Shown: positions 1 through 17,598 of the stretch, piece by piece
Layout: each line of letters opens with the position of its first letter
Position numbering within the stretch: position 1 is the stretch's first letter
Sequence record: NZ_CP023509.1
Strand: one strand, 5' to 3'
Length of the DNA stretch: 39,540 nucleotides
Source of the DNA: a plasmid
Program-made: the position numbers and the translations under genes
Notes under the pieces: generated by a model
The model's input: only the letters and a program-made list of their open reading frames with translations
Databases searched by the model: none
Told to the model about the DNA's origin: nothing

Positions 1-199
1 GAGAAGTTCATGAATCGTTGAGTTGGGCCGCCCGGCATCTGCACGAAACAGATACCGGGCGGCTTCGCTGTGTAGGCACTAGGTGGGGTTTGGGAATTAT
101 GGGTGTGGCTGCGGGGCGGATACCCTGCATGATGTGGGTCTGAGAGGTTAAACTATGTGTAGGTCAATGCTAGAAAAACTTCCCGAAAGGAAAACTAAA

Positions 200-568
200 A
201 TGTCCCGTTCACCCCGTACCACCGCCGCCCGCCGTGCACGCGAAAAGGCGGAAGAAAACGGGCGCATCTTTAAAGAGCTCCAGGCTCGACTACATGCGCT
301 TGCAGTGGAATTTTTCACCCTCCAAGAAAGCACCCCGGCGGCAAAGATTGAGAACGAAATCGCCGCCAAAGAGAAGGAACTAGAGGCGCTGCGCGCCAAG
401 CGTGACGAAGCCCGCGAAGAAGCCCGGCGGGTACTCTCTGCACCGGTCGCGGCAATGGCCGCGCTCAATGAGCCGCCCGCAAACATTGCGCAACGCTTGG
501 GGCTGACCCGCGCGCAAGTAAACGGCCTGCTGCGCGTGCATAAGGAATCAGCCGAAACCGAAGATTAG
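200..568 (+). CDS. Coiled-coil protein with C-terminal helix-turn-helix (putative DNA-binding regulator). The ORF track starts at 155; the ATG at 200 has the better RBS.
   Basis: ORF 155..568. C-terminal stretch NIAQRLGLTRAQVNGLL looks like an HTH. The Ala/Glu/Lys/Arg-rich middle is a likely coiled coil. AAGGAAAA lies upstream of the ATG at 200. The gene ends at a long perfect palindromic terminator. Confidence 0.5.
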   Translation: MSRSPRTTAARRAREKAEENGRIFKELQARLHALAVEFFTLQESTPAAKIENEIAAKEKELEALRAKRDEAREEARRVLSAPVAAMAALNEPPANIAQRLGLTRAQVNGLLRVHKESAETED

Positions 569-574
569 GAACGC

Positions 575-629
575 GAAAGGGCGGCGGGGCTTCTCAGAGA
601 ATTTCTCTGAGAAGCCCCGCCGCCCTTTC
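575..629. terminator. Bidirectional intrinsic terminator (perfect ~25-bp inverted repeat)
   Basis: gaaagggcggcggggcttctcagaga att tctctgagaagccccgccgccctttc lies between the convergent genes 200..568(+) and 635..916(-). Confidence 0.7.
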
Positions 630-634
630 GTTGG

Positions 635-916
635 CTAGCTCTTAATCTTGACCGCCCAACCCGCTACGAAAGCCGGGTTATTAGGCTTCAGATTCGACCG
701 GCTGGCGACGATTACCCGGCACCCCGCGTCTTCCAGAAGCCGCAACATTTCGAGTTGCTGCTCTTGAAAGGTTCCCCCGCACCGTTGCGCCCATTCCGTG
801 AACTCCGTGATGAGTTTCTGGAGCCGGTCGGGGGTCGCCTCGTGACCGGTAACCTCCACCATTGGGTGATGAGTGTTAAGGCTCGCGTATCGCGTCCATA
901 CGTCATAAATTGCCAT
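635..916 (-). CDS. Hypothetical small protein, member of a five-copy ~90-aa paralog family (family A)
   Basis: 93 aa. Shares the EQQLEMLRLLEDAG..V..(G)W(A/M)VKF/TF C-terminal pattern with 985..1272, 1506..1787, 2523..2801 and 3033..3302. Lies immediately downstream of 985..1272 and is probably co-transcribed with it. Confidence 0.6.
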   Translation of the reverse strand: MAIYDVWTRYASLNTHHPMVEVTGHEATPDRLQKLITEFTEWAQRCGGTFQEQQLEMLRLLEDAGCRVIVASRSNLKPNNPAFVAGWAVKIKS

Positions 917-984
917 GTTGTGCCCTTCTGTCAGGTGGTGGGGCGGCGCATCATGCGCCGCCCCGTTGCTGGTGTGTCTAAGCT

Positions 985-1272
985 TTAGCCTTCGCTAAAG
1001 GTAATGGACCACTTAGCCGAAACGCCGGGCTTGGTGTAATCCGACTGGCTCGACATCACCACTACCCAACCTTCACGCTTGAGCTTGCACTCCATGACTT
1101 CGCGGTGCAGCTGTGCCGCCGCCGGAATGCCGACGCTAAAGCTTTCGCGGCAAACCTCCAACAGGCTACGCAAGCGGTCGGGAATCGGTGCCGGGCCGCT
1201 GAGGTTGAACGTCAGACGCTTAGTCTTCGGGGTGGTGCCGTAGTAACTTGCGGTGAGCTCGTACAGTGCCAT
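985..1272 (-). CDS. Hypothetical small protein, family A paralog
   Basis: 95 aa. The start codon is directly preceded by the conserved module (AGGAAUUAAUCAUCAUG). Confidence 0.6.
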   Translation of the reverse strand: MALYELTASYYGTTPKTKRLTFNLSGPAPIPDRLRSLLEVCRESFSVGIPAAAQLHREVMECKLKREGWVVVMSSQSDYTKPGVSAKWSITFSEG

Positions 1273-1440
1273 GATGATTAATTCCTAACTGATTCGCTGT
1301 CGGCTGCGCCGGTCGGCGCTACCGGTAAGGGTTTCGGGGTTTCCCTCCCCGTTCTTCCTTACACTTATAGTTTACCATATATGGAAGCATACAAACAAGC
1401 TGGAACGGTGGAAATTTCGAGGGAATTTCAGCGCGCCACC
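1273..1440 (-). promoter_or_regulatory. Conserved promoter + structured 5'-UTR module, copy 1. Sigma70-like TTGTTT-N18-TGgTAAACT, ~100-nt leader with two hairpins, SD AGGAA.
   Basis: Near-identical modules occur at 1788, 2802, 3303, 4585, 5585, 6261, 7852, 9664, 12117 (minus orientation) and 12241, 13640, 15000 (plus orientation). Core: ccttacacttatagtttaccatatatggaag...cttgttt. Confidence 0.6.
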
Positions 1441-1460
1441 GCACCGAAAAGCACGAAAGA

Positions 1461-1493
1461 GGGACGGCTCAGAGTTTCCTCTGAACCGCCCCC
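1461..1493 (-). terminator. Intrinsic terminator of 1506..1787 (conserved GGGACGGCTCAGAG/CTCTGAACCGCCCC hairpin)
   Basis: Imperfect GC hairpin immediately 3' of the gene. Same sequence family as the terminators at 2482 and 2985. Confidence 0.5.
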
Positions 1494-1505
1494 TGACCGC
1501 TTCGG

Positions 1506-1787
1506 TTAGTCGGTGAACGTCACCATCCAATGACCGTTTACCGGCTCGGTGTGTTCGGCTCCAAACGTGGAGGTCGTGCGAATAATCTTAAACCCCGCTT
1601 CTTCGAGCAAGCGCACCATTTCGAGGTTTTGCTCTTGCGGGCTACGGAAGCACTTAAGATAGGTCATCGTAGACCCCTCCAGCACCTTATAAACAGCTTC
1701 CACGCCGGGCGCCTGAGTCACGCCAATACGCACGCTCGCCTTATCGCCCTCGTCGGTGTAGATTGCCTTGAGGTGGAAAGTAGACAT
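1506..1787 (-). CDS. Hypothetical small protein, family A paralog
   Basis: 93 aa. PQEQNLEMVRLLEEAGFKII...NGHWMVTF is almost identical in pattern to 3033..3302. Has its own module copy upstream. Confidence 0.65.
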   Translation of the reverse strand: MSTFHLKAIYTDEGDKASVRIGVTQAPGVEAVYKVLEGSTMTYLKCFRSPQEQNLEMVRLLEEAGFKIIRTTSTFGAEHTEPVNGHWMVTFTD

Positions 1788-1950
1788 GATGTTGTTTCCT
1801 TACTGATTTGCTGTTCGGTGCCGCCGGTCGGCTGCACCGGTAGGGGTTTGGGTTGCTGTCCCGTGTTTTCCCTACACTTATAGTTTACCACATATGGAAG
1901 TGAGAAAACAAGGTGAGACGGCGGAACTTTTGAGGGAATTTCACCGCACC
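1788..1950 (-). promoter_or_regulatory. Conserved promoter/5'-UTR module, copy 2
   Basis: catgatgttgtttccttactgatttgctgttcggtgccgccggtcggctgcaccggtaggggtttgggttgctgtcccgtgttttccctacacttatagtttaccacatatggaag... Confidence 0.6.
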
Positions 1951-1967
1951 CTCTGCACGATAACCCC

Positions 1968-2471
1968 CTAGAATAGCTGGGTTTGTCCTTCCATGACGAT
2001 ACCGCGCCCCAAACGGTCTACAGCCTCTTGGCTGTAGCCGTGCTCTAACACAAAGTCCCGAAGCTCTCGCGCGTCAGCGGCGCGCTCTGCTCTGCTGCGC
2101 CGTAGGAAAACGTGACCGTGCAGGTTGTCCCTTCCGCGCGCGGCACGCTCGCGCATATTGTCCGCGTGGTTGCCCAAGAATAGATGTGAAAGCGCGCCGC
2201 TCTCAGCCCTGACACATAGGGGGTTATCGCAAAGGTGCGTTACCATTTCGGCGGCCTGCACGTCCTCCAGTCCGAACGCGGCGGCGGCGGCGTAGCGGTG
2301 TGCGCGCCACATGATGAACCCTTCCGGGGTGTCGCGATCTTTGACCCAAAATCTACCGTAGCCGTCCGCACCTATCGCGCCCGTCCAGACCCAACACGCG
2401 CCGGGCGCCTGTCCCTTAATCACTTTGTCCCAAAATCGGTTAGTCGCTGCACTGTCCATCATGGACAGCAT
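1968..2471 (-). CDS. HNH homing-type endonuclease (free-standing, phage-like HNH_3 family)
   Basis: 167 aa. CWVWTGAIGADGYGRF matches the N-terminal HNH_3 motif. THLCDNPLCVRAESGALSHLFLGNHADN matches CDNxxCVNPxHLxxGTxxDN. The gene has no module copy. It is wedged between the terminator of 2523..2801 and the module of 1506..1787. Confidence 0.8.
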   Translation of the reverse strand: MLSMMDSAATNRFWDKVIKGQAPGACWVWTGAIGADGYGRFWVKDRDTPEGFIMWRAHRYAAAAAFGLEDVQAAEMVTHLCDNPLCVRAESGALSHLFLGNHADNMRERAARGRDNLHGHVFLRRSRAERAADARELRDFVLEHGYSQEAVDRLGRGIVMEGQTQLF

Positions 2472-2481
2472 GATACGCCAC

Positions 2482-2515
2482 AGGGGCGGCTCAAGGTTTC
2501 CCCTGAGCCGCCCCT
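2482..2515 (-). terminator. Intrinsic terminator of 2523..2801 (perfect 12-bp stem AGGGGCGGCTCA/TGAGCCGCCCCT)
   Basis: GC hairpin immediately 3' of the gene on the minus strand. Confidence 0.65.
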
Positions 2516-2522
2516 ACATTAC

Positions 2523-2801
2523 TTATGCGCCGTGAAATTTAATCATCCAGCCGGTGATGAATCCTTCACAGGTAACCTGCCTTGAAAATTCGGGTACGTA
2601 ATTCGCTTCGAGAATCAGCTCTAGCATAATGTTCAGATGCTCACTCGCCGGAACCTTTACCGCCTGCATCCGCTTCCTATACCGCTGAACCATGTCGTTA
2701 ACATTTTCGGGAATCGGTGCGTCGCTTTCAATACTGAGTGAAACCCCGACCTCCCCACGGGGGTTAGGGGTGTACAGGGTCTTAATGAAAAACGGTTCCA
2801 T
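2523..2801 (-). CDS. Hypothetical small protein, family A paralog (most divergent)
   Basis: 92 aa. Ends ...CEGFITGWMIKFHGA. Module copy upstream. Confidence 0.55.
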   Translation of the reverse strand: MEPFFIKTLYTPNPRGEVGVSLSIESDAPIPENVNDMVQRYRKRMQAVKVPASEHLNIMLELILEANYVPEFSRQVTCEGFITGWMIKFHGA

Positions 2802-2968
2802 GATGTTGTTTCCTAACTGATTTGCTGGGCGGTGCCGCCGGTCGGCTGCACCGGTAGGGGTTTGGGTTGCTGTCCCGTGTTTTCCCTACACTTATAGTTT
2901 ACCACATATGGAACCATGAAAACAAGGTGAGGGCGGCGGATTCTTCGAGGGAATTTCAGCGCGCCAGG
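2802..2968 (-). promoter_or_regulatory. Conserved promoter/5'-UTR module, copy 3
   Basis: Near identical to copy 2. Confidence 0.6.
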
Positions 2969-2984
2969 TGTGCCAGAAAGTGCA

Positions 2985-3019
2985 AGGGGGCGGCTCAAGG
3001 TTTCCCCTGAGTCGCCCCT
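2985..3019 (-). terminator. Intrinsic terminator of 3033..3302 (same sequence family as 2482..2515)
   Basis: gggggcggctca aggtttcccc tgagtcgcccct. Confidence 0.6.
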
Positions 3020-3032
3020 GTGGTTGCTTCGG

Positions 3033-3302
3033 TTAGCCCGCGAAGGTCACCGCCCAATGACCGTTTACCGGGTCGTGCTGCTCTGCTCCAAATGTGGAGG
3101 TCGTGCTAACAATCGTGAAGCCCGCCCGCTCCAGCATCCAGAGCATTTCTAGGTTTTGCTCTTGCGGGGTATCGAAGAATTTAATGTAGCTCTTGGCTTC
3201 TTCCAATAGGGGGGTGAAGGCTTCCGCGCCGGGTGCTTCCTTCATGGCAAGCTGTACCCCTGCATTGTCGGCGTAGTTGCCCTTGAGCGTGAAAGTGGAC
3301 AT
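3033..3302 (-). CDS. Hypothetical small protein, family A paralog
   Basis: 89 aa. TPQEQNLEMLWMLERAGFTIVSTTSTFGAEQHDPVNGHWAVTF. Confidence 0.65.
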   Translation of the reverse strand: MSTFTLKGNYADNAGVQLAMKEAPGAEAFTPLLEEAKSYIKFFDTPQEQNLEMLWMLERAGFTIVSTTSTFGAEQHDPVNGHWAVTFAG

Positions 3303-3450
3303 GATTTCATTTCCTAACTGATTTGCTGTTCGGTGCCGCCGGTCGGCTGCACCGGTAAGGTGTTCGGGGTTTCCCGCCCCGATTTATCCTTACACTTATA
3401 GTTTACCATATATGGAAGCGTGTAGGTAAAGTGGGGCGGTAAAAATCCCG
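3303..3450 (-). promoter_or_regulatory. Conserved promoter/5'-UTR module, copy 4
   Basis: catgatttcatttcctaactgatttgctgttcggtgccgccggtcggctgcaccggtaaggtgttcggggtttcccgccccgatttatccttacacttatagtttaccatatatggaag. Confidence 0.6.
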
Positions 3451-3512
3451 CAAAAAAGGGCGGCCCACCCCCACACAGGGGCGAACCGCCTTAGCGCCCC
3501 TCAGAGGCTCAT

Positions 3513-3917
3513 CTAGAACACATGCGCGAGAAGCTGCACCATCAGCGCCACGCCACAGAAGACCGCCAGAATCCCCGCAAAGACCCCGCCAAAAACCGCC
3601 GCTTCGCCGCCTGAATCCTTCGCCTTCTTAATCGATCGCTTCCCGCCCATGATGAGCAAAACCACGAAAGGAAGCGCAACGGAAATATACGCCATATACC
3701 CTATATGTGCGCCCTCTAGGGGGTCTTGATTCGATTGACTCATCATCAGCGGCGCGACAATAACCAAAGCCTCGAAGACAAACACACCGAAGACCGTAGC
3801 GGCAAAATAGGGCGCTTCCTGGCGTAGATGCTGGCGGGGAATTGCCAGAGCCCACACCACGCTATGCCCCATGAGAGCTATGACCGTAAACAGCAGCAGA
3901 GCCGGAAGATGTTCCAT
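3513..3917 (-). CDS. Small integral membrane protein (4 predicted TM helices)
   Basis: 134 aa, hydrophobic throughout. SD AAGGAAAA upstream. No module of its own. Follows the terminator of 4003..4584. Confidence 0.55.
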   Translation of the reverse strand: MEHLPALLLFTVIALMGHSVVWALAIPRQHLRQEAPYFAATVFGVFVFEALVIVAPLMMSQSNQDPLEGAHIGYMAYISVALPFVVLLIMGGKRSIKKAKDSGGEAAVFGGVFAGILAVFCGVALMVQLLAHVF

Positions 3918-3951
3918 GATATGTTTTCCTTTGCTTGTGGTTGGAGATGAA

Positions 3952-3982
3952 GGGGGAAACCGGAATGTTCCGGCTTCCCCCC
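3952..3982 (-). terminator. Hairpin terminator downstream of 4003..4584
   Basis: gggggaaaccgg aatgtt ccggcttccccc. Confidence 0.45.
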
Positions 3983-4002
3983 GCTTTCTGTGTGCTAAGC
4001 GA

Positions 4003-4584
4003 CTAGCTCAGCGCTTCGGTCGAAACCCCTAAGTCCTGAGCGAGGCGGGCGATAAACTTACGCGCCGGAACAAGCTTAGCGGTGCCGTATTCCTGCTTGA
4101 GGGCGTAGCGGGCGTATGCCTTCACGTTCTTACGGGTTACCGCCACGGGTTCGGCGGTTGCTTCGTCCAGCTTTCCCCACGGGTCGAACTCGTCATCTTC
4201 AAAGTCAAACCATACGGTGCGCGGGGCGGTAATTGCCTCAGACGGGCACCCGTTCCATGCCATGTAAACATCTTCGGTCAGCGGCACCTCCGGGGCTGCG
4301 TAGAGCTTTTCCCCGCTGGCACGGGTGCCGTTGGTGACAAGCTCACAGAACGGGTCAATGAACGGGGTCACAAGCTCCTCAATGATGGAGATGATGCCCT
4401 CCAGGGTACCCACCCCAAGGTAGGTTTTTTGTGCCGGAAGCCACGGGTTCGAGTCTGCAAACTCGCCCATGCGAAGAATTGCCGGGCGGTCGCACCACAG
4501 GGCGTAGGGCTTACCGCCGTTCTTCTCGATTTCCTCCACCTCGCGGGTGATAGCGGTGATGTCTGCGCCGGTCATCTTTGCCAT
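4003..4584 (-). CDS. Hypothetical protein, paralog of 11514..12116 (family B)
   Basis: 193 aa. Shares GGKPYA...SGEKLYAAPEVPLTEDVYMAWN with 11514..12116. C-terminal EPVAVTRKNVKAYARYAL resembles the PLPVTxENV motif of family C. Module copy upstream. Confidence 0.6.
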   Translation of the reverse strand: MAKMTGADITAITREVEEIEKNGGKPYALWCDRPAILRMGEFADSNPWLPAQKTYLGVGTLEGIISIIEELVTPFIDPFCELVTNGTRASGEKLYAAPEVPLTEDVYMAWNGCPSEAITAPRTVWFDFEDDEFDPWGKLDEATAEPVAVTRKNVKAYARYALKQEYGTAKLVPARKFIARLAQDLGVSTEALS

Positions 4585-4750
4585 GATGTTTGTTTCCTAA
4601 CTGATTTGCTGTTCGGTGTCGCCGGTCGGCTGCACCGGTAGGGGTTTGGGGGTTCCGCCCCGTTCTTCCTTACACTTATAGTTTACCACAAATAGAAGAA
4701 TACAAACAAGCTGTGGCGGTGGAAAATCTAGAAAAAATCCCCCTGCAAAC
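4585..4750 (-). promoter_or_regulatory. Conserved promoter/5'-UTR module, copy 5
   Basis: Module sequence with -10 variant TATTTGTGGTAAACT. Confidence 0.55.
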
Positions 4751-4828
4751 ACCCCGCTGTGGCACGCATTTCATGGCATAAGCTAGGCCCCCTCCCCCTC
4801 ACAGGAAGAGAGCCTAGCTCACTGTGTG

Positions 4829-5584
4829 CTAACCCTCGACCGGGTTCAGCTCCACGCGCCAATCATAGGTTGGGTTCTCCCACCGCACGATACGTTCAGC
4901 GAAGCGGCGCACGTTCTCCACGGTCACAGGCAACGGGTGAATGTGTCGCCAGACCGGGGCCGGGCTGTCCAGGGGTTCAAACTCGCGCATGGTGTCGTCT
5001 TCGTTGTGGCACATGCTCGGCTTGTCGGTGAACCACTTCCAGGCGGCCATGTTCTTACCTTCTTCATGGCTAAACATTTCTTCCGGGGTGCAGAAGCGGC
5101 ACAGTCCCCAATCTTCGAGCTGTTCGACCAATTCGGGAAGGGTGCCCGTCCACTGGCGGGCTTTATCGCCGTCTGCAAAGGCCTGTACTCGGTAGACCCG
5201 ATCGCTTCCCGCTGCGGCGGGCTCTGCGGTCATTTCAACGCTCCAGGGTTCCCCGTCGCTTGCCTCAGCGGTGATGTAGTGGACGTAATTTTCAACGTTC
5301 GCGCGGGTCACAGGCAACGGGTGAATGTGCGGAAAGAACTTACCGCCGCCGGGTGCCGGGCGACTGAAGGGGTAGGTTTCGGTCGCTTCCTCTTCGCTGA
5401 GGTCTTGGGGGCTGATTCCGCGGGCGCGGTCAGTGAACCATTCCCACCCAATGCCCATAATGCGGCGGTTAAACGGCGCGTCCTGATTCTTCTGTGCCCA
5501 CTGCACAATGTCGGCCAGGGTGCCGGCGTATTCGGTGATGGTTTCGCCAATGGTGGCGCGAATGGTAAACAGCTGGTAAGTCAT
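4829..5584 (-). CDS. Hypothetical protein with internal tandem duplication, family C (PLPVTxENV motif)
   Basis: The ORF track runs to 5635, but the conserved leader places the start at the ATG 5582-5584 (MTYQLF...), giving ~251 aa. Two repeats each carry WxWFTD and HPLPVT(R/V)(A/E)NV motifs. Homologous to 5808..6260. Confidence 0.6.
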   Translation of the reverse strand: MTYQLFTIRATIGETITEYAGTLADIVQWAQKNQDAPFNRRIMGIGWEWFTDRARGISPQDLSEEEATETYPFSRPAPGGGKFFPHIHPLPVTRANVENYVHYITAEASDGEPWSVEMTAEPAAAGSDRVYRVQAFADGDKARQWTGTLPELVEQLEDWGLCRFCTPEEMFSHEEGKNMAAWKWFTDKPSMCHNEDDTMREFEPLDSPAPVWRHIHPLPVTVENVRRFAERIVRWENPTYDWRVELNPVEG

Positions 5585-5750
5585 GATGTTATGTCCTTGT
5601 CTGATTTGCTGTTCGGTGCCGCCGGTCGGCTGCACCGGTAAGGTGTTCGGGGTTCCGCCCCGTCGTCCCTACACTTATAGTTTACCACATATGGAAGTAT
5701 ACAAACAAGCTGGAACGGCGGGGATTTTGGGGAAATTTCGCCCCGAAACC
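5585..5750 (-). promoter_or_regulatory. Conserved promoter/5'-UTR module, copy 6
   Basis: catgatgttatgtccttgtctgatttgctgttcggtgccgccggtcggctgcaccggtaaggtgttcggggttccgccccgtcgtccctacacttatagtttaccacatatggaag. Confidence 0.6.
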
Positions 5751-5807
5751 GGGCACGCAAAAAAGGGGGGCGGGCACATCATGTACCCACCCCCTAGAGC
5801 CTAGCTC

Positions 5808-6260
5808 TTAGAGAACTTCCCTCAGCTCAACCCCCCACCGTACAGAAGGGTCTTCCTTGGTCATGGTGTAGTGAACGTAGTTGCCGACATTCTCCACCGT
5901 GTGCGGCATGGGGATTACACGCCGCCATGAAATGACGGGGAAAATATCGCCATTATCAAGCTCCAACACCTGCACCCCTTCATCTGCTGTTTTATACAGC
6001 TGATGAACCATTCGACTGTTTGCCCCGAAGAGTTCCCGCACTTCCCGCACATAATCAGTGAACCATTCGTGGCACGTCACCCGCTCCTCTGTCCCGCGCC
6101 GGTAGGCAATGAATGGGCGAGAGAAGCGCACAATATTGTGTTGCTCCATCTGCTGCACAATGTCGGCCAGAGTGCCAGTCGTGACCTTCTCCCCGTCCTG
6201 TCCGTCCTTGGACAAGAAAACGCTGTAGACCCGATCGCTGGCTTCCTTGATGGTGTTCAT
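5808..6260 (-). CDS. Hypothetical protein, family C (single-repeat version)
   Basis: 150 aa. DRVYSVF..TGTLADIVQQME, WFTD and IPMPHTVENVGNYVHY match both repeats of 4829..5584. Confidence 0.6.
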   Translation of the reverse strand: MNTIKEASDRVYSVFLSKDGQDGEKVTTGTLADIVQQMEQHNIVRFSRPFIAYRRGTEERVTCHEWFTDYVREVRELFGANSRMVHQLYKTADEGVQVLELDNGDIFPVISWRRVIPMPHTVENVGNYVHYTMTKEDPSVRWGVELREVL

Positions 6261-6420
6261 ATTCAGCCCCTTCTGCTATGTGTCAGCCGCGCCTATTGGC
6301 TCAGCTGGTAAGGGTTCCAGGGTTTCCCTCCCCGGTCTGTCCTTACACTTATATTCTAGCACAAGTAGAAACGTATAAACAAGGTGGGGCGGCGGATTCA
6401 GAGCATAAAAAAGTTCCCCC
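6261..6420 (-). promoter_or_regulatory. Conserved promoter/5'-UTR module, copy 7 (diverged 3' part; -10 TAGAAT)
   Basis: ggtaagggttccagggtttccctccccggtctgtccttacacttatattctagcacaagtagaaacgtataaacaagg. Confidence 0.5.
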
Positions 6421-6482
6421 CTCGCATCATGCACAAGGGGGGAACCAGCAAATCAGTTAATGCAACTGTACCACGGGTAAGG

Positions 6483-6847: not shown

Positions 6848-7504
6848 TTACGCGCCCGCGTAGTCCAGAATTTCACTCGCCAATGCCTGCATTTCCTCGC
6901 TGGCCTGCTCAGTGCGGGCGCGCTGCTCTACCACGCCCCGGCCTTCTTTCAGAGCGTCGGGGTAAATGCGGCGATTGAAAATTACCGCGTCCGCTAGCGC
7001 GAAGTCTTCCGGGCTGTCTTCCAGCGCGGCGATAGCCACGTCACGGTGCTTGCTCCTGGGGTGAGTGGACGCGCGCGTAATGACCACCAGCATTTTCAGC
7101 GCTTCGTTGATGATGCGTGCTTCGTCCATACGGGCGAGAAAATCTTTCGTGCTGTCCAAATCGGGCTTGTCGGCGTTGGTCGGAATGACAAGCACGTCAG
7201 AGACTAGGGCTGCGGTGCGCAATTCGAGCGAATCCTTACCCGCCGTGTCTACTAGCACAAGGTCGTAAGCCTGCTCCAGGCCTTCGAGCGTGACATTCAG
7301 CCTGTCGGTCTTCCGTAGGACGGTGACCGGTGCCAGGTCGTCGTGTGCTTCGCGGCGTGCGGCCCATGTGGAGGACGTGTACACGGACGGGTCGGCCTCA
7401 ATGACGATGACGCGGTGCCCCGCGCGCTGATAGATTGCGGCGAGATTGACCGCGAGGGTGGATTTTCCGGTGCCGCCCTTGTGGCTGCCAATGGTGATAA
7501 TCAT
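6848..7504 (-). CDS. parA: ParA-family partition ATPase (small, type Ib)
   Basis: 218 aa. Deviant Walker A IGSHKGGTGKST. Aspartates at VIVIEADP and LVDTAG. Confidence 0.9.
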   Translation of the reverse strand: MIITIGSHKGGTGKSTLAVNLAAIYQRAGHRVIVIEADPSVYTSSTWAARREAHDDLAPVTVLRKTDRLNVTLEGLEQAYDLVLVDTAGKDSLELRTAALVSDVLVIPTNADKPDLDSTKDFLARMDEARIINEALKMLVVITRASTHPRSKHRDVAIAALEDSPEDFALADAVIFNRRIYPDALKEGRGVVEQRARTEQASEEMQALASEILDYAGA

Positions 7505-7520
7505 GATTTTCTGCTCCTTC

Positions 7521-7568
7521 TGATGCAGTCATTGCATAATGCAATGATAGCACTCTGCAATGATAGCA
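7521..7568. promoter_or_regulatory. parA promoter-operator region: palindrome TCATTGCATAATGCAATGA plus two direct repeats TGCAATGATAGCAC
   Basis: Sits immediately upstream of the parA start. The palindrome core matches the long palindromes at 17566 and 18681. Confidence 0.55.
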
Positions 7569-7851: not shown

Positions 7852-8012
7852 TGTGTTTTCCTTCCATTGGAGTTAGTCAGTCCGTCCAGGATTGGGCGGT
7901 GCCGGTAAGGCTTCCGGGGTTTCCCTCCCCGGTTTGTCCTTACACTTATAGTGTACCACAAATAGAAGCATACAAACAAGCTGGAGCGGCGAAAAACCTA
8001 GAAAAAAATCCC
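7852..8012 (-). promoter_or_regulatory. Conserved promoter/5'-UTR module, copy 8 (-10 TACACT)
   Basis: gtaaggcttccggggtttccctccccggtttgtccttacacttatagtgtaccacaaatagaagcatacaaacaagctgg. Confidence 0.5.
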
Positions 8013-8030
8013 CCTGCTGCGGGTACATAA

Positions 8031-8073
8031 AAAGCTTCGGCACTGAACCTAATAGGTTCAGTGCCGAAGCTTT
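8031..8073. terminator. Bidirectional terminator (18-bp perfect stem, A/T flanks)
   Basis: aaagcttcggcactgaacct aat aggttcagtgccgaagcttt. Confidence 0.65.
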
Positions 8074-8075
8074 AA

Positions 8076-8900
8076 TGAAAGTCCCTTAACCCGTCACCGG
8101 GCTAAGGGAAATGTTAGGAAAGTTCCGCCCCATAAAAGTAACAGTACATTCCTCAATGAAAGCCCACCCCCTTGTGAGGGGGTGAGAAGGAAAGAAAGGG
8201 CGCTCCCGATATGTTCAAGAATCCCCCTCAATGAAAGCCCCGCAGCTTGTGTGGCTACGGGGAATGCGCATAGAGAATGAGGCTCCCATTATAAAAATGT
8301 TCGTCCCTCAATGAAAGCCCCGCACCCCCTGCCTGTAGCACACAACCACAGAGCGGTAAGGTGGGGGAATGAGAATCAAACAGTCGGCTTCTTCCCACAA
8401 AATTTCAATTCCTCAATGAAAGCCCCGCCACCGTAAGAGCAGCGGGGAAGAAGGCCACTGTAAAGCTCAAGATAACTTACAATGTCTGCCTCAATGAAAG
8501 CCCCTTAACCCGTCACCGGGTCAAGGGGAAGAGGAATAAGTGCAAGCACCCACCACGATAAGTTCCATTCCTCAATGAAAGTCCTTCCGCCCCACCAGCG
8601 GGGGCGAAGCGGAAGGAAAAGGGTGGAGGAGAAAAGCTCTTCCAACGAAAATATTCACTCCTCAATGAAAGCCCCGCCGCCCGCAAGCGGCGGGGAATAC
8701 ACATAGAGAAGGGCCTCCCGCTAGATAACGTTGATTCCTCAATGAAAGCCCCTTAACCCGGTGCCGGATTAGGGGAAAGAGAAGAAAGCAAATGCTCCCT
8801 GAAACTACTATTGGAGTCCTCAATGAAAGCCCGCCCCCTGCAAGGGGGGGCGAGAAAAGGGATAGCCTCGCAAAACTTAGCCACTTCCAAGGTTCCCTAT
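8076..8900. repeat. Tandem array of 10 structured units (73-104 bp each). Each unit has a conserved leader (CCTCAATGAAAGCCCC) plus a GC hairpin of variable sequence, then GGGGAA and a variable 30-45-nt tail.
   Basis: Unit starts at ~8076, 8151, 8224, 8306, 8410, 8489, 8570, 8660, 8737 and 8818. Hairpins differ in sequence but keep their pairing (for example ccccgccgc..gcggcgggg, ccccttaacccg..cgggtcaagggg, tccttccgc..gcggaagga). No conserved ORF. On the minus strand each hairpin is followed by CTTTCATTGAGG. Confidence 0.7.
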
Positions 8901-8988
8901 GCGGTTATGTTTTCAGTTTAACACTACCTCTGAAAGCGAGGCAAGCGTTTTCGTCACCAGCGAGTTTTCACCTTATCCCTGATGGGAA

Positions 8989-9663
8989 TTAGCGAATCCT
9001 GCGGTTCCGCGGCGGTTGCGCTGCGGCGCGAACTTCATTCACACAGATTTCCAGGCTATCGCTCTGCGAATCGGCGTAGGCGTAGGCATCAAGTTCATTA
9101 CCCATCATGGCCGCATAACTGTTCACGATGTAACCGTAGTACTTGGTGCAGTTAGGGACGTCGATTTCATGAACCCATCCCAACGTGTCACCTTCTTCAT
9201 TGCAGACCCTCCACAAGCCCGGCGGGCACGGGTCAACGTTGAGCGCGTAGAGATGTTCAGCTCGAAGAAGGCGAGTGTCGAACGGGTAGTCTCGCTCAAT
9301 CTGGCGAGAAAGCCAGCGTAGCCACTGCGCAAAGCTTTTCAGGAAACCCGCTTCCTGCCTCCGGTGCTGATCTTTGCGGATTTCTTCGGCTTCTCGCTCG
9401 AAAAATTCGATGACCTCATCAGCGGCGAAGAAAACGGTCGGGTGCTGGTCTTTGCTGTGAATGGTGATGCACTCTGCCTTCTCACCCAATGCTTCGGCAA
9501 TGGGGTTAGGGTCGCGGTCCATATTGAGCCAGAGCCTCTTCCCCCTGCTGCGAAAGTACCAACGGTTATCGAACGGCCCGTTCCCAAATGGTGAAGGCCC
9601 GGCAATGTGTGCCGAGTACGTGCGGCCCTTTTCCTTTCGAATGTACTTGATGCTGTGTGACAT
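8989..9663 (-). CDS. Hypothetical protein (224 aa)
   Basis: Long ORF with its own module copy and leader (cagaaggagaaacagcATG). No recognisable motif. Confidence 0.55.
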   Translation of the reverse strand: MSHSIKYIRKEKGRTYSAHIAGPSPFGNGPFDNRWYFRSRGKRLWLNMDRDPNPIAEALGEKAECITIHSKDQHPTVFFAADEVIEFFEREAEEIRKDQHRRQEAGFLKSFAQWLRWLSRQIERDYPFDTRLLRAEHLYALNVDPCPPGLWRVCNEEGDTLGWVHEIDVPNCTKYYGYIVNSYAAMMGNELDAYAYADSQSDSLEICVNEVRAAAQPPRNRRIR

Positions 9664-9800
9664 GCTGTTTCTCCTTCTGATTTGCTGTTCGGCTGCGCCG
9701 GGTTCGGTGCCGCCGGTAAGGGTTCCGGGGTTTCCCGCCCCGTGTTTTCCTTACACTTATATTCTACCATAAATTAAAGAATATAAGTAGGTTTCACCCC
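9664..9800 (-). promoter_or_regulatory. Conserved promoter/5'-UTR module, copy 9 (-10 TAGAAT)
   Basis: catgctgtttctccttctgatttgctgttcggctgcgccgggttcggtgccgccggtaagggttccggggtttcccgccccgtgttttccttacacttatattctaccataaatt. Confidence 0.5.
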
Positions 9801-9859
9801 CACAATTTCCCCAAAAAAATAAGCCCCCCACTCGCAAAGCGAGAGAGGGGCTGCACCTT

Positions 9860-10495: not shown

Positions 10496-10672
10496 CTAAT
10501 GCAGAGCAACCATAAGTGCCAGATAGCCGGTGTCCACCGCCAAGAACGGCCAGAGCAGCCAGTACCAGGCCCCGCGCCGCAGCCCCCACCCACGGGCGAG
10601 GACAAAATACCACGGGGCAAGCAAGAACACCAGCGCGAGGACGAACAGCCCAATAACCACTAAAACTTTCAT
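10496..10672 (-). CDS. Very small membrane protein (58 aa; hand-translated, not in the ORF track)
   Basis: MKVLVVIGLFVLALVFLLAPWYFVLARGWGLRRGAWYWLLWPFLAVDTGYLALMVALH. SD AGGGAAAA. Lies between the 63-aa TM gene and the family D gene. Confidence 0.35.
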   Translation of the reverse strand: MKVLVVIGLFVLALVFLLAPWYFVLARGWGLRRGAWYWLLWPFLAVDTGYLALMVALH

Positions 10673-10678: not shown

Positions 10679-10870
10679 CTATTGCTCCCACTTAGAGGCC
10701 AAAAAAGCACAGTAGCAAAAGCCGACAAACAGCGCCGCCGCAAAAACCAGCCACACCGGATTCATAGAGCTTTTCTCCCCATCTTCCCCATTGGAGAGCC
10801 TTCCGAATAGGGCGGCGATTACAGCGAGCACAAGCACGATAGCCGCCAGCAACAAGAAGAAGCCGGTCAT
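10679..10870 (-). CDS. Small membrane protein (63 aa, 2 TM)
   Basis: Hydrophobic. Overlaps the upstream HTH gene by 4 nt (ATGA), which suggests translational coupling. Confidence 0.5.
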   Translation of the reverse strand: MTGFFLLLAAIVLVLAVIAALFGRLSNGEDGEKSSMNPVWLVFAAALFVGFCYCAFLASKWEQ

Positions 10871-11157
10871 TTCTTCTCGCTCTTGACTGCCACACCGTGC
10901 GGGCGGGGGGTACCGCTTTTATTCCAACCCCACGCTCGGGAATGCGGCGGGTTTTCCTCGCGCCAGTCCATCCAGCGGCGCGCCTCGGATTCGAGATAGC
11001 CCCAAGTGCTGCCCGTCAGTGAGGCGGGGTGAATGTCGCCCTTTTCTCGGGCGTTGTTCACCGTCCTAGTATCCACTCCGGCCATTGCCGCAACCTGTTT
11101 ACTGGACAAATACACGATGAACTTGCCCTCTTGTTCCTTCTTCTTTTTCTTTGCCAT
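10867..11157 (-). CDS. Lys-rich helix-turn-helix DNA-binding protein (excisionase/MerR-like HTH_17)
   Basis: 96 aa. LSSKQVAAMAGVDTRTVNNAREKG. N-terminal KKKKKEQE. Confidence 0.55.
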   Translation of the reverse strand: MAKKKKKEQEGKFIVYLSSKQVAAMAGVDTRTVNNAREKGDIHPASLTGSTWGYLESEARRWMDWREENPPHSRAWGWNKSGTPRPHGVAVKSEKK

Positions 11158-11513: not shown

Positions 11514-12116
11514 TTAGTCCTGTTCGGTCTGCTGCGCGAAGTGCTCGGTCAGCTCTTCTAGTACCTGACGTGCCGGGATCAGCTCGATTCGCTCATCCTG
11601 ATACTGCGTGAACACTTCTTCGGTCATGTACACGCTCAGGTTCTCCACGGTCAGCGGAAGTGGTTCCGAATGAACAGTCAGGCGCTCCATATCTTCCCAT
11701 TCCTCACTGTGCGGGTTGCTCAGGTCGTCCTCGTCGGCGTAACCAGCATCCACAAGAACGGTTCGGGGGCCAGGCTCACCGGTTAGCTCATCGTGGTTCC
11801 ACCAGATGTAAACATCTTCCTTCACGGGGACAGAAGGTGCGGCGTACAGCTGCTCTCCTGAGTCACGGTGCCCGCCACTGATGGTCTCACAGAAGTCTTT
11901 CTGTGCCGGTTTCGGGTCGGACTGGAACCAATGCAGAATGTCCTCCAGAGTGCCGAACTCTTCCTTCCACAGGGTCTTGATGGTGTGGTCCCATGCCCAC
12001 GAATCACGCTCGGTGAAGACGACGGCGTAAGGCTTCTCGCCTGCCGCTTCCATCTTCTCGACAGTGCAGGTCAGGGCCTTCAGGTGGCGTTCTTCCACAT
12101 TCCAGGTGGTCGTCAT
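11514..12116 (-). CDS. Hypothetical acidic protein, family B paralog (also carries the family C C-terminal motif)
   Basis: 200 aa. GEKPYA...SGEQLYAAPSVPVKEDVYIWWN matches 4003..4584. EPLPLTVENLSVY matches family C. Module copy upstream. Confidence 0.6.
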   Translation of the reverse strand: MTTTWNVEERHLKALTCTVEKMEAAGEKPYAVVFTERDSWAWDHTIKTLWKEEFGTLEDILHWFQSDPKPAQKDFCETISGGHRDSGEQLYAAPSVPVKEDVYIWWNHDELTGEPGPRTVLVDAGYADEDDLSNPHSEEWEDMERLTVHSEPLPLTVENLSVYMTEEVFTQYQDERIELIPARQVLEELTEHFAQQTEQD

Positions 12117-12240
12117 GATGTTGTTTCCTTACTGATTCGCTGTTCGGTTGCACCGATTGGTACTACCGGTAAGGGTTTCGGGGTTTCCCTCCCCGGTTCA
12201 TCCTTACACCTATATTCTACCATACATAGAAGAAAATAAA
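12117..12240 (-). promoter_or_regulatory. Conserved promoter/5'-UTR module, copy 11
   Basis: catgatgttgtttccttactgattcgctgttcggttgcaccgattggtactaccggtaagggtttcggggtttccctccccggttcatccttacacctatattctaccatacatagaag. Confidence 0.55.
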
Positions 12241-12359
12241 AACCCGCTTTGCCTATTATTTTTTCACAATTCCCCCCGCTCAACCCCTTATTATATATTT
12301 CTACTTATGCTATAGTATAAGTAGGGGTAACCCCACCCCTTACAACCCCTGGAGGAACC
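12241..12359 (+). promoter_or_regulatory. Divergent promoter region for 12360..12845. Contains a module-like -10 core inside the palindrome TACTTATGCTATAGTATAAGTA.
   Basis: ctatagtataagtaggggtaacccc resembles the module core ggtagaatataagtgtaggg. SD GGAGG before the ATG. Confidence 0.4.
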
Positions 12360-14909: not shown

Positions 14910-14999
14910 ATCAGTCACAAAAGTACCCGCAGCAGGGGGTGGTGTCAGGTCAGCAGTGCCTGGAGCCCGGAATTTTTCGTGATGATTTCGCCGCCATAG

Positions 15000-15123
15000 C
15001 TTGCATATATCATTCTCGATATGGTACACTATAAATGTAAGGTTGAGGGGAGGGAAAACCCTTGACCTGACCGGCGAAATCCACCCGGACAAGCCGAAAC
15101 CCACGACAGAAGGAAACAACATC
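15000..15123 (+). promoter_or_regulatory. Conserved promoter/5'-UTR module, second plus-orientation copy (TTGCAT-N18-TACACT)
   Basis: atggtacactataaatgtaaggttgaggggagggaaaacccttgacctgacc...gaaggaaacaacatcATG is the reverse complement of the minus-orientation module. Confidence 0.55.
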
Positions 15124-15771
15124 ATGCTTAGCTCCCTGTTCACCTCCTCAACCCCACCCCCAAACGAAAACGAATTTGCGGTTAACCTGGTCCTCTTGTT
15201 CTTCCTCCTAATCCTCATGTTATTCGCCGCCTTCGCTGTGTGGCACGATTCTGAAACTGCTCACAAAATCAAGAACAAGATGACATGGCATTTAGTAACG
15301 ACGATTGAAAAAGAGAGCATTGACAAAGAAACACGCCTTGAAAATCTGAAAATCCGCGACTGGAACCCATTTATCAAAAAAGCATACATCACCAAGGACC
15401 CGACCTATGCTGACGTTCTCCGCCACCGCCCCCACATCAGATTCAAGGCCAAAAGCCCGGTTCAAAAGTGGGGCGAAGAACTCGAATCAGTCTTCTCTTA
15501 TCAGGACGGCGATACCTGGTCAATGGATTATCCATCCTTGTACTGGAACGGTGACCCTGAAAACGCTGCACCGGGAGAAAGGCTTAACAGTGTTATCCAC
15601 ATCGTCCCTTCAGATAAGGATTACTCCTACTGCACGACTGAGATTTGGCATTATCGCCTCTGCAACAGGAAGCAGCTCAAAGAAGAGGGCAAGGATCATG
15701 AGCATACCGGCATGTGTGAGCTCGTCAATTCCGTTAAGCATGTGACCTGGCATATTAAGGTGAAGGGGTAG
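15124..15771 (+). CDS. Membrane-anchored Cys/His-rich protein, family D paralog 3
   Basis: The track ORF 15001..15771 is probably over-extended, because the conserved leader and SD place the start at the ATG 15124 (MLSSLF...). C-terminal IHIVPSDKDYSYCTTEIWHYRLC...HEHTGMC...HVTWHIKVKG. Confidence 0.6.
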   Translation: MLSSLFTSSTPPPNENEFAVNLVLLFFLLILMLFAAFAVWHDSETAHKIKNKMTWHLVTTIEKESIDKETRLENLKIRDWNPFIKKAYITKDPTYADVLRHRPHIRFKAKSPVQKWGEELESVFSYQDGDTWSMDYPSLYWNGDPENAAPGERLNSVIHIVPSDKDYSYCTTEIWHYRLCNRKQLKEEGKDHEHTGMCELVNSVKHVTWHIKVKG

Positions 15772-16419: not shown

Positions 16420-17361
16420 CTAGCGCCAGACCCTCACCAACGGACGGCGAATCACCGGCGTTCCCTCCGGGCCTTTCAAGAACGGCATAATCCACCTCAA
16501 CCGGCGCTTCGCTAGGCCCTTACCGTAGGCGACATTGCGCCAGTGACCCCGCACGACGAATTGGTGACTGTACCACTCTTCACGATCTTCTCGCCCGCCC
16601 TGAGCCTCTGAGCTGCGCACCGCCTGCTTCCTTAGCGTCGGGCTAATCTGCACCGTGCGCACGGTCGCGCCCGGCACGCTACGGCGCTTGCCATGCTTAC
16701 GCTTGGTCTTCGGGGTGACTGTCTCGGCTCCAATCGAGGTAAGCGACGTATCACCCATCAACAAGAACGTGGCCTCAACAAGGCGTAGGCACGCTTCCCC
16801 CACATCACCAGCTAACGCAAATCGCCCACCTGCGGGGACTCTGGGCACCTCGCCGGGACACTCAGGGATTCCTAGCACGCTACCGGTACCCTTGGGCGCG
16901 TGCATTGGAGAAGAGGCGGCGGCACGCTGTGCCGGGCCGAAAATCAGAAGTAGCCGGCCGTCCTGCACCACGAATCCTAGAACCTCGCACACCGGCGGTA
17001 TATCCTGCCCAAAGGCACCCCGCCGCCACAGCTGCGGCGCGCCGGTCGTATCCACTGTGAAAATGCCGGTGCCCGTTTCATAAAGCACGCCCATGTTTCG
17101 GGTAAGGTCAAGCCAGGACTCCCCCGATTCTTTTTCGGGCATGGATTCATCCTGGGAAGCGTCGAAAATAACATCCGTGATGTCGTCGGCAATCCAGAAA
17201 ATATCGTCTAGCTTCACTTCTGGCTGGAATGGCACCGCCATGTGAATTACGTCCTCTGGGGTGCCTGGGGGGAATTGCTTCCGGGCGTGACTGTAGGCTG
17301 CGGAATACAGGCTACTTTCCAGAATTGCGGGGGTGTCCTTGATGCTGATTCGGTGCGTCAT
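16420..17361 (-). CDS. Hypothetical protein (313 aa), basic C-terminus
   Basis: Long ORF. The palindromic operator (17566-17598) lies in its upstream region. Confidence 0.5.
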   Translation of the reverse strand: MTHRISIKDTPAILESSLYSAAYSHARKQFPPGTPEDVIHMAVPFQPEVKLDDIFWIADDITDVIFDASQDESMPEKESGESWLDLTRNMGVLYETGTGIFTVDTTGAPQLWRRGAFGQDIPPVCEVLGFVVQDGRLLLIFGPAQRAAASSPMHAPKGTGSVLGIPECPGEVPRVPAGGRFALAGDVGEACLRLVEATFLLMGDTSLTSIGAETVTPKTKRKHGKRRSVPGATVRTVQISPTLRKQAVRSSEAQGGREDREEWYSHQFVVRGHWRNVAYGKGLAKRRLRWIMPFLKGPEGTPVIRRPLVRVWR

Positions 17362-17565: not shown

Positions 17566-17598
17566 TATGCAGTCATAGCATAATGCTATGACTGCATA
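17566..17598. promoter_or_regulatory. 33-bp perfect palindrome TATGCAGTCATAGCAT A ATGCTATGACTGCATA (operator copy B)
   Basis: Same motif family as 7528..7546 and 18681..18737. Confidence 0.55.

Follow-up and report, generated by a model that had tools for sequence, protein, structure and literature searches.

The stretch of DNA analysed here, plasmid sequence record NZ_CP023509.1 (39,540 nt, hereafter the window), is all or part of an actinobacterial conjugative plasmid, with a G+C content of 56%. At 8070-8935 it carries the element with which we are concerned, an array of ten tandem units, each composed of an invariant 12-mer, a G+C-rich hairpin of varying sequence and a tail. This layout had been described in an original prediction made from the letters alone, which classed the array as neither CRISPR (short palindromic repeats that are clustered and regularly interspaced) nor attC, and the layout itself is borne out. 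The motif CCTCAATGAAAGYCCC, with up to 2 mismatches allowed, occurs 10 times in the window, on the plus strand only, where 0.08 copies are expected by chance, and none of 100 shuffled windows attained that number. The plus-strand form of the 12-mer is CCTCAATGAAAG(Y)CCC, found between 8070 and 8833, with a spacing of 75-105 bp from unit to unit. The array had been taken to begin at 8076; it extends from 8070 once a degenerate copy, CTTTAATGAAAG, is counted.

Read on the minus strand, each unit is a hairpin followed by CUUUCAUUGAGG. The hairpin abuts the 12-mer in every unit and comprises 9-15 bp, or more in unit 3 (minimum free energy and centroid folds), and a single hairpin family is common to units 0, 5 and 8, as had been noticed before. 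The tails, which we term pseudo-spacers (psiS), are of near-constant length, 39-43 nt in the window with a mode of 42 across the family, while hairpins run from 24 to 69 nt. In sense-strand order there is a leader (8935-8855), then the pseudo-repeat psiR9, nine pairs of pseudo-spacer and pseudo-repeat down to psiR0, and two terminators at 8073-8003 (Table 1). The leader element TGTTAAACT is, from its sequence, a candidate promoter of the array. Two bidirectional terminators had been counted on this side; one (8031-8073) is indeed strong and bidirectional, and a second terminator, at 8003-8024, is a minus-strand one. The other hairpin of the earlier count, at 7914-7932, belongs instead to a repeated promoter/5' untranslated region (5'UTR) cassette of the plasmid. 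No guide follows psiR0, a position with which the decay of its handle fits, and the arrays of two relatives (L060 and L098) end in the same degenerate copy.

Standard searches passed the array by. Tandem Repeats Finder reported no repeat at 8070-8905, Rfam gave nothing at the gathering threshold and only chance-level matches at E <= 10, with no CRISPR-DR family, ARAGORN found no tRNA in the array region, and blastn of the array against PLSDB and INPHARED gave no match. Integron attC arrays require an integrase and R''/L''-L'/R' sites; Pfam scans of the window proteins returned no integrase and the 75-105-bp units hold no cassette open reading frames (ORFs), so that the exclusion of attC stands.

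A metagenome scan for irregularly spaced 12-mers, combined with locus classification, yielded homologous irregular arrays on about 19 other contigs. Units are shuffled between these relatives and some hairpin-tail combinations are recombinant. The additional units allowed covariation to be assessed, by class-wise alignment and base-anchored counting, as mixed hairpin classes align with their 5' arms out of register (MAFFT/RNAalifold). Among orthologous long hairpins, with units from other contigs, double-sided compensatory changes were seen in 5 of 16 pairs, which upholds the claim that pairing is kept while sequence changes. The four basal pairs are invariably Y-Y-C-Y : R-G-R-R (pyrimidine 5', purine 3'), with C-G to U-A swaps. 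G-U pairs in the hairpins number 95 on the minus strand and 30 on the plus strand, and the minus strand gives the greater stability in 37 of 46 distinct hairpins (Wilcoxon p = 2e-6). Because of this asymmetry and this greater stability we take the minus strand as the folded, functional one, and the earlier suggestion of a conserved structure acting as RNA is confirmed in favour of minus-strand RNA.

Likeness to the type I-G repeats of Rothia

We scanned one genome per species for two 12-mers lying 60-90 nt apart, and obtained 35 loci, mostly in Rothia and Corynebacterium. In these loci the 12-mer starts the 36-nt repeat of long regular CRISPR arrays with a period of 70-75 nt, as in the R. mucilaginosa repeat CCTCAATGAAAGTCCCTCCGAAAAGGAAGGGAAAT. 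Stems vary from genus to genus but the 12-mer does not, and CCTCAATGAAAG forms the constant end of the 36-nt type I-G repeat in Rothia, Corynebacterium and others. Beside the regular arrays lie genes for a Cas4-Cas1 fusion, Cas2 and Cas_GSU0053, the last of which, in Rothia mucilaginosa, is called type I-U/I-G Csb1/Cas7u in the sources. We infer from its position only that the 528-529-aa gene after cas7 is csb2.

In CTTTCATTGAGG and in the stem base the pseudo-repeats agree exactly with Rothia type I-G repeats, and their hairpin is placed as it is there. By sequence, then, the minus strand of each unit is the 3' half of a 36-nt type I-G repeat, with the putative Csb2 cleavage site and the putative 8-nt handle of a CRISPR RNA (crRNA). 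Comparing the hairpins with the CRISPR repeats of candidate hosts, as had been proposed, hence ended in a match to the type I-G repeats of Rothia and Corynebacterium, and the verdict "not CRISPR" has to be withdrawn, since the 12-mer and hairpin base are the reverse complement of the conserved part of that repeat. In Thioalkalivibrio, cleavage by the type I-G Csb2 lies 4 nt 3' of the hairpin and gives a 5' handle of 8 nt, and the enzyme remains on the hairpin (PMC9638904). By correspondence with that enzyme, the cut in the plasmid RNA would fall after the hairpin between CUUU and CAUUGAGG(N), with a predicted 8-nt handle of AUUGAGGN. From handle to hairpin, 50 well-delimited units of the relatives measure 37-45 nt with a mode of 42, and real arrays 39-41 nt.

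The spacers of the fetched arrays (773 unique) were compared with the window, counting as a match up to 6 mismatches. Thirty-two Rothia spacers matched, five of them perfectly, and their protospacers are spread over the whole plasmid. Because of these 32 spacers the plasmid, as far as sequence can tell, is a Rothia element under real type I-G pressure. In the motif orientation the 3' flank of the protospacers reads N-T-A (T in 30 of 32, A in 26 of 32), which is a 5'-TAN protospacer adjacent motif (PAM) reversed, mostly TAC; this orientation sets the crRNA sense of the array as the minus strand of the window. The TAN motif of Rothia differs from the TTN cited for type I-G in the introduction of the Thioalkalivibrio paper (PMC9638904). 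The array is in its turn a target: one real Rothia spacer (L088 2786-2820, shared by L148) has its protospacer where psiS2 meets hairpin 2 (window 8264-8298, PAM TAT), and fits the array variant of L073/L101 at 35 of 35 positions.

Host guide modules and the plasmid guides

A weak blast match of tail 7 pointed to Rothia chromosomal sequences with mini-arrays. These modules begin with a solitary hairpin and (C/T)TTCATTGAGG (psiR1), followed by a segment of ~40 nt (the host psiS) and then by a second, odd hairpin with CTTTCtctg (psiR2). At +118..140 (~125 nt) downstream of the mini-array lies a TAT or TAC PAM with a match of 16-21/24 to the module's own psiS. Altogether 62 Rothia loci carry 39 distinct modules, which fall into 16 guide families. 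In the 29 loci whose flanking genes were placed by tblastn, the module is always on the cas strand between cas2 (upstream, 172-3251 nt away) and cas7 (downstream, about 600-1000 nt away).

The mismatches between host psiS and target are strongly patterned, being 0% at positions 1-5, 50% at position 6, 4-15% at 7-11, 58% at 12, 4-12% at 13-17 and 58% at 18. Complementarity is gone after about position 21, and mismatches reach 73-88% at positions 25-29. Read from sequence, the peaks at 6, 12 and 18 are the six-nucleotide Cas7-backbone periodicity of type I effectors, with complementarity that is partial, the signature of CreA/CreR-type regulatory guides (PMC9458426). Downstream of the host target is a conserved small transcript with a perfect Shine-Dalgarno sequence GGAGGTGAAGGA, a mini-ORF (for example MFRLLTR...) and a strong terminator. 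The CGA, CTA and AGA codons of that mini-ORF are presumably rare in a high-G+C host. The small RNA would thus have the anatomy of a CreT-like product. The mini-ORF RNA is replaced in the L001/L006 family by an ORF of 142 aa that has a hydrophobic stretch. ORFs of 117-142 aa lie downstream of the presumed guided promoter at L001 minus 3705-3277 and in L006, at 284-685 in L189/L191, at 769-1158 in L196-L199 and L201, and at ~800-1153 in L203-L205. The guarded cargo seems to vary between Rothia lineages. In the literature we searched, where CreTA and type I-G come together in one paper only and type I-G is named there just once, such guard modules appear undescribed for type I-G.

Eight of the nine pseudo-spacers of the window find their best match in eight different families among the 16 of the hosts, at 17-22 of 24 positions (Table 1). 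In a test of 2000 shuffles per guide, at most 3 attained the score for each of these eight. The tails had been regarded as unique to each unit; they do vary, and that they are meaningless does not hold, given their length of 39-43 nt and the eight matches to host guide families. In whole-locus scans the top matches fall directly after the host handle or directly after a TAY PAM, and the first 11 nt of psiS7 are identical to the host guide of L028. All host targets have a TAT or TAC PAM, in agreement with the TAN of the real protospacers, and are sited between cas2 and cas7.

When the 34 plasmid guides of all arrays are set against the host targets, mismatches amount to 71/76/53% at positions 6/12/18 and to 10.6% elsewhere in positions 1-20. 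In the eight matched guides of the window, positions 1-5 are conserved and the early mismatches sit mostly at 6 and 12, positions that do not pair; over all 34 guides the likeness stops near position 24. The tails have no match elsewhere in the window beyond 13 nt, and neither guides nor hairpins have another counterpart there. An A/T-rich box with GGGAG in each tail had been tried as a per-unit promoter and was dropped, the tails being copies of the presumed host promoter targets.

The hairpins tell a different story from the guides. Compared by eye and unscored, the window hairpins and the host psiR1/psiR2 share no sequence except a CUCC/GGAG-type base; the copying of the guides thus did not include the hairpins. 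Their divergence would be consistent with the natural diversity of Rothia repeat stems. It would also be consistent, by analogy, with resistance to recombination of the kind described for degenerate CreTA repeats (PMC9458426).

Table 1. Coordinates of the array, its parts and other features; window positions except in the last row
Feature	Position	Strand	Remarks
Whole crRNA-like array with short leader	8070..8935	-	ten pseudo-repeats (psiR9..psiR0), nine pseudo-spacers (psiS8..psiS0), read from 8935 to 8070
Motif copies (starts)	8070, 8151, 8226, 8306, 8411, 8489, 8570, 8660, 8737, 8818	+	
Leader before psiR9	8855..8935	-	holds TGTTAAACT (8916-8924), like the extended -10 TGGTAAACT of the plasmid promoter cassette
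psiR9	8818..8854	-	hairpin 8830-8854, CTTTCATTGAGG 8818-8829; 5' handle source for psiS8
psiS8 (A, CTCCAATAGTAGTTTCAGGGAGCA...)	8776..8817	-	family L001/L006/L054 (best locus L001); 21/24 TAC-PAM target, 20/24 host psiS; 0/2000 shuffles
psiR8	8737..8775	-	hairpin 8749-8775, handle 8737-8748
psiS7 (A, ATCAACGTTATCTAGCGGGAG...)	8696..8736	-	family L152/L028/L029 (best locus L152); 20/24 TAT-PAM target; within 1-21 mismatch at 6 only
psiR7	8660..8695	-	hairpin 8672-8695, handle 8660-8671
psiS6 (A, GTGAATATTTTCGTTGGAAG...)	8618..8659	-	family L024/L078 (best locus L024); 17/24; within 1-20 mismatches only at 6, 12, 18; 3/2000
psiR6	8570..8617	-	36-nt hairpin 8582-8617, handle 8570-8581
psiS5 (A, ATGGAACTTATCGTGGTGGGTGCT)	8529..8569	-	family L188 (best locus L188); 22/24 host psiS, 19/24 target; 0/2000
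psiR5	8489..8528	-	hairpin 8501-8528, handle 8489-8500
psiS4 (C, AGACATTGTAAGTTATCTTGAGCT)	8448..8488	-	family L181/L014/L088 (best locus L181); 19/24; 0/2000
psiR4	8411..8447	-	hairpin 8423-8447, handle 8411-8422
psiS3 (A, ATTGAAATTTTGTGGGAAG...)	8368..8410	-	family L080/L105/L157/L194 (best locus L080); 17/24, 17 of first 19; 1/2000
psiR3	8306..8367	-	50-nt hairpin 8318-8367, handle 8306-8317
psiS2 (G, ACGAACATTTTTATAATGGGAGCC)	8263..8305	-	family L003/L043/L092 (best locus L003); 19/24; 0/2000
psiR2	8226..8262	-	hairpin 8238-8262, handle 8226-8237
psiS1 (G, GGATTCTTGAACATATCGGGAGCG)	8187..8225	-	without host family in sampled loci, best 14/24
psiR1	8151..8186	-	hairpin 8163-8186, handle 8151-8162
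psiS0 (A, ATGTACTGTTACTTTTATGGGGCG)	8110..8150	-	family L008/L034 (best locus L008); 17/24; 1/2000
psiR0, terminal pseudo-repeat	8070..8109	-	hairpin 8082-8109, degenerate handle CTTTCATTAAAG 8070-8081
Two tandem intrinsic terminators	8003..8073	-	19-bp stem 8031-8073 then CTTTTTAT; CCCGCAGCAGGGGG and T7 at 8003-8024
Orphan 224-aa gene	8989..9663	-	directly upstream of array, equal strand; syntenic in L060, L073, L098, L101, L104, L150
Promoter/5'UTR cassette copy	9664..9800	-	would drive 8989-9663 and possibly, by read-through, the array
Cassette copies, minus-strand genes	1260-1420, 1775-1935, 2790-2950, 3290-3450, 4570-4730, 5565-5725, 6265-6425, 7860-8020, 9650-9810, 12090-12250	-	
Cassette copy, plus-strand gene	14990-15150	+	
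ParA	6848-7504		565 bp from array
SLT/CHAP	21908-23173		
RepA_C	23767-25314		22-bp iterons upstream
T4 coupling protein	31137-32849		
TrwC relaxase	33995-39019	-	
Plasmid-matching protospacers (examples)	7501-7537, 10624-10659, 24931-24965, 30866-30899, 4075-4113		
Host loci with guide module	L001 3700-3950	-	likewise L003, L006, L008, L014, L024, L028, L029, L034, L042, L043, L152, L159-L205, others

A probable crRNA-like array and its alternatives

We consider it probable that the array is a plasmid-borne set of nine crRNA-like anti-CRISPR guides (a Cracr array) directed against the type I-G systems of Rothia. Most likely, such an element hijacks host Cas proteins to disarm both CRISPR immunity and its back-up toxin. 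According to this model, minus-strand transcription would run from 8935 to 8070, starting at the array's own -10-like element and/or by read-through of 8989-9663, and would end at the double terminator (8073-8003). Host Csb2, the Cas5-Cas6 fusion of type I-G, would bind each hairpin and cut between CUUU and CAUUGAGG. Nine RNAs would result, in each of which the 8-nt handle is followed by ~37 nt of pseudo-spacer and by the hairpin at the 3' end; having the geometry of a genuine I-G crRNA, they may be expected to assemble with Cas7 and Cas8g into Cascade. Each pseudo-spacer would mimic the CreA/CreR-like guide of a different Rothia lineage and would pair, over ~20-24 PAM-proximal nt, with that lineage's TAY-PAM promoter in the cas2-cas7 interval, the putative promoter of a CreT-like small RNA. 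The cognate guide would hold the host promoter shut and all nine would compete with immune crRNAs for Cas proteins, by which a heavily targeted plasmid might lower interference while the CRISPR-guarding toxin stays unreleased. Variation of the hairpins would be tolerated if recognition is limited to the hairpin base and the 3' flank, and the divergent repeats would withstand recombination.

Cracr RNAs, which mobile elements carry as mimics of CreA/CreR, load onto the Cas effectors of the host in competition with immune crRNAs and also repress cas or creT promoters; some occur in arrays of 2-3 guides that address variants of a single subtype (Liu et al., bioRxiv 10.1101/2024.10.29.618823). Like those arrays, the present one is borne by a mobile element outside the CRISPR-cas locus, and its repeat-like elements resemble host CRISPR repeats and flank guides that copy host CreA/CreR guides, in 8 of 9 cases over at least 9 PAM-proximal positions. 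The guides, several to a unit and keyed to same-subtype variants of related strains, have partial PAM-proximal complementarity to a putative host promoter in the cas locus, and the expected action is likewise dual, competition and repression. The differences lie in scale and setting. The Cracr study treats subtypes V-A, I-B, I-C, I-E and I-F, with "I-G" absent from its text (10.1101/2024.10.29.618823), whereas the window array is of subtype I-G, is carried by an actinobacterial conjugative plasmid and is known from sequence alone. It has nine guides and ten pseudo-repeats against at most three guides in that study, and its guides are of full length (about 37 nt) against the 21-24-nt psiS of the I-E Cracr array described there. 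Also unlike the elements of that study, each pseudo-repeat has a different and often much extended hairpin around an invariant 12-nt cleavage-site/handle segment.

The CreTA/CreR modules of host CRISPR-Cas loci (for example Cheng et al. 2022, PMC9458426) are mini-arrays that have degenerate, recombination-resistant repeats and a guide that pairs partially with an adjacent promoter. The Rothia host modules have this anatomy and the plasmid units copy their guides; unlike such modules, the plasmid array lies outside a cas locus and is accompanied in the window by neither a target promoter nor a toxin. With the canonical type I-G arrays of Thioalkalivibrio and Bifidobacterium (PMC9638904) it shares the 3' repeat segment, hairpin position, guide length and strand logic, and differs from them in its non-identical repeats, in having no leader or adaptation module and in guides that are not acquired from invaders. 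Canonical CRISPR arrays have near-identical direct repeats, and here only the 12-mer and about 4 basal pairs are common to the units.

Several points weigh against our interpretation. A sigma-70 scan found no promoter with both hexamers near the array. The compared sequences are mutually related, so that the shuffle figures overstate independence; psiS1 found no host match among the sampled Rothia loci (best 14/24), and psiS0, psiS3 and psiS6, at only 17/24, persuade mainly through their handle or TAY PAM context and their mismatch positions. When plasmid pseudo-spacers are compared family by family, positions 1-20 have only a slight edge in conservation over the distal part (0.136 vs 0.184). 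The plasmid stems have 9-28 pairs and those of genuine repeats 7, which leaves Csb2 cleavage of the longer hairpins putative. On the host side, the target is read as a promoter and the downstream RNA as a toxin from their anatomy only, and the module could autoregulate the cas7-csb2 operon, being CreR-like rather than CreTA-like.

The alternative that survives best, though we hold it unlikely, is that the RNAs are pure decoys or competitors (Racr-like, "dummy crRNAs") which soak up Csb2 and Cas7 or fill Cascade idly, the resemblance of the guides being a relic of the capture of a host mini-array. Racr RNAs and non-targeting crRNAs were found experimentally to reduce type I-F interference by competition, and for RacrIF1 or a non-targeting crRNA competition suffices for inhibition (Camara-Wilpert et al. 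2023, PMC10651486). Both kinds of element share RNA mimicry of host repeats and competition for the Cas6-type protein and Cas7. A given host can be matched by one of the nine guides at most, leaving the others to compete only, and the weak positional conservation inside the plasmid pseudo-spacer families would also suit a decoy. Against this, the plasmid guides match the host targets at least as well as they match the host guides (21 vs 20 for psiS8, 20 vs 18 for psiS7), and their mismatches spare the pairing positions and cluster at 6/12/18. Eight host families in one array are hard to explain without selection for target coverage. Racr elements, moreover, are solitary repeat units with no guide matching a host promoter and no constraint on guide length, whereas here ten units stand 75-105 bp apart and guide length is kept at about 41 nt. 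SRUFinder drops repeat matches within 100 bp of each other (PMC10651486); because clustered matches are discarded in this way, the window array would escape its reporting. Among the roles put forward in the original prediction, an anti-CRISPR decoy came closest, being probably right about an RNA anti-CRISPR and wrong about subtype I-E, and it ignored the tails, with which the array goes beyond a decoy made of hairpins. The window holds no type I-E-like repeat or other decoy elsewhere.

It is far less likely that the array is an orphan or degenerate CRISPR array using host Cas proteins against competing plasmids or phages. Plasmids do carry orphan arrays, and a related Rothia contig (L030/L136) has a regular I-G array by its rep region with spacers that match the window. 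In the present array, though, the repeats have only 12 nt and the stem base in common, and there is neither a CRISPR leader nor cas genes (Pfam scans of 47 window ORFs returned no Cas domain). Its tails, alike in layout and unlike acquired spacers, have no match in PLSDB, INPHARED or elsewhere in the window, and match putative host chromosomal promoters over ~20-24 nt only, too short for a full R-loop.

Least probable of all is a role outside CRISPR biology, whether as a partition centromere for the ParA encoded 565 bp away (6848-7504), as intrinsic terminators, as single-stranded DNA (ssDNA) priming or promoter hairpins, or as independent trans-acting small RNAs: at least 8 units do fit a terminator-like pattern on the minus strand, and the surrounding small genes are co-oriented, as is typical of leading regions. 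Yet real Rothia repeats fit the terminator-like pattern too, for a like reason; between the array and parA stand a gene, a promoter cassette and two terminators; the G-U asymmetry favours RNA over duplex DNA; and 12-mer, stem base, spacing, strand and tails are all explained by type I-G crRNA mimicry. The centromere and the priming sites proposed earlier accordingly find no support, and the proposed small-RNA array holds in a generic sense only.

If the array is a Cracr array, one may speculate on an arms race of "key-ring versus changing locks", a proposal for which belief and doubt are in our view evenly matched. At least 16 host guide/promoter variants exist, which sit beside Cas7 genes of 82-100% identity, and plasmids would gather one mimic guide per variant. 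With the same even balance we suggest that nine guides here, and up to ten or more in relatives, would be expressed from the leading region on entry, and that Csb2 would tolerate extended, divergent hairpins which stabilise the array against recombination. If true, the locus would rank as the largest natural one for multiplexed anti-CRISPR RNAs and as the first against type I-G, and guard modules would diversify under pressure from mobile elements.

The Cracr interpretation would bring type I-G, the Actinomycetota of the human mouth and conjugative plasmids within the reach of RNA anti-CRISPR mimicry, and nine guides per transcript would imply pan-strain coverage. A CreTA/CreR-like guard family in Rothia with highly variable guide/promoter pairs makes host-plasmid coevolution directly testable. 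The TAN PAM, the handle and the presumed tolerance of Csb2 for varied hairpins may be of use for the engineering of Rothia and for type I-G tools, as may natural recombination-proof multiplex guide arrays. Pipelines that discard clustered or divergent repeats overlook such elements.

Plasmid setting and related loci

Most window proteins other than those listed in Table 1 are orphans. Megablast of window 15-39.5 kb against PLSDB gave no match, so that, together with the blastn result for the array, the plasmid is absent from PLSDB and INPHARED, and the window has no terminal overlap that would prove circularity. Upstream of RepA_C are 4.2 perfect copies of the 22-bp iteron GGTGGGGGGTTTAGCCGCGTTA at 23353-23444, with a partial copy near 23452-23467; the region 23353-23444 is the probable replication origin. 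Two 16-bp palindromic repeats, ATTGCATAATGCAATC and GCATAACGCAATCACC, at 17578-17613 and 18686-18734, lie upstream of the minus-strand genes 16420-17361 and 17605-18612 and are possible operator sites. The L020 spacer that matches 7501-7537 has 15 nt in common with them.

The 224-aa protein encoded upstream of the array belongs to no Pfam family and has near-identical relatives only; its AlphaFold model has a mean pLDDT (predicted local distance difference test) of 37.5 and is unusable. The gene is a possible co-transcribed partner of the array, and it is a guess that its product might be an anti-CRISPR protein. The relatives in which it is syntenic are the six contigs that share window 8.8-12.3 kb (L060, L073, L098, L101, L104 and L150).

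The promoter/5'UTR cassette, of ~120-140 bp, is present in eleven copies directly upstream of start codons, and most genes from 1.2 to 15.1 kb have one. In gene orientation its sequence is TTGTTT...TGGTAAACTATAAGTGTAAGGA, followed by hairpins CGGGG.GGGAAACCCCG and CCGGTGCAGCCGACCGG, both conserved, and by AGGAAA-ATG. Its appearance is that of a common promoter/5'UTR by which small orphan genes in a probable leading region are regulated together. The array, placed among co-oriented small cassette-bearing genes on the relaxase strand, would fit early expression on entry, by analogy with the logic of leading regions (PMC11541004). A Rothia spacer in L032 partly matches several cassette copies. 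Among the small genes of the leading side, sub-threshold domain hints were obtained for HNH_3 (E = 6e-5) and HTH_17 (E = 7e-5), at 1968-2471 and 10867-11157, and the remaining ones are all orphans.

Two related loci deserve mention. In a Rothia metagenome-assembled genome (L011, 4880-4960), two type I-E-like pseudo-repeats, ATCCCCGCACCGCTGTGGGGATGAGCC and TCTCCGCACCTCAGCGGAGATGAGTG, surround a 24-nt segment, and this mini-array is divergently oriented beside an I-G-type array, an arrangement suggestive of an RNA anti-CRISPR island aimed at two subtypes. In the Rothia contig L030 (= L136), the regular type I-G array and the rep region occupy 68-4731 and 4745-6164; the rep region is 76% identical to window 23368-24804, and the spacers match window 19717-19749 and 38963-39001, and the iterons in part. 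The contig looks like a related plasmid that turns host Cas proteins against this one.

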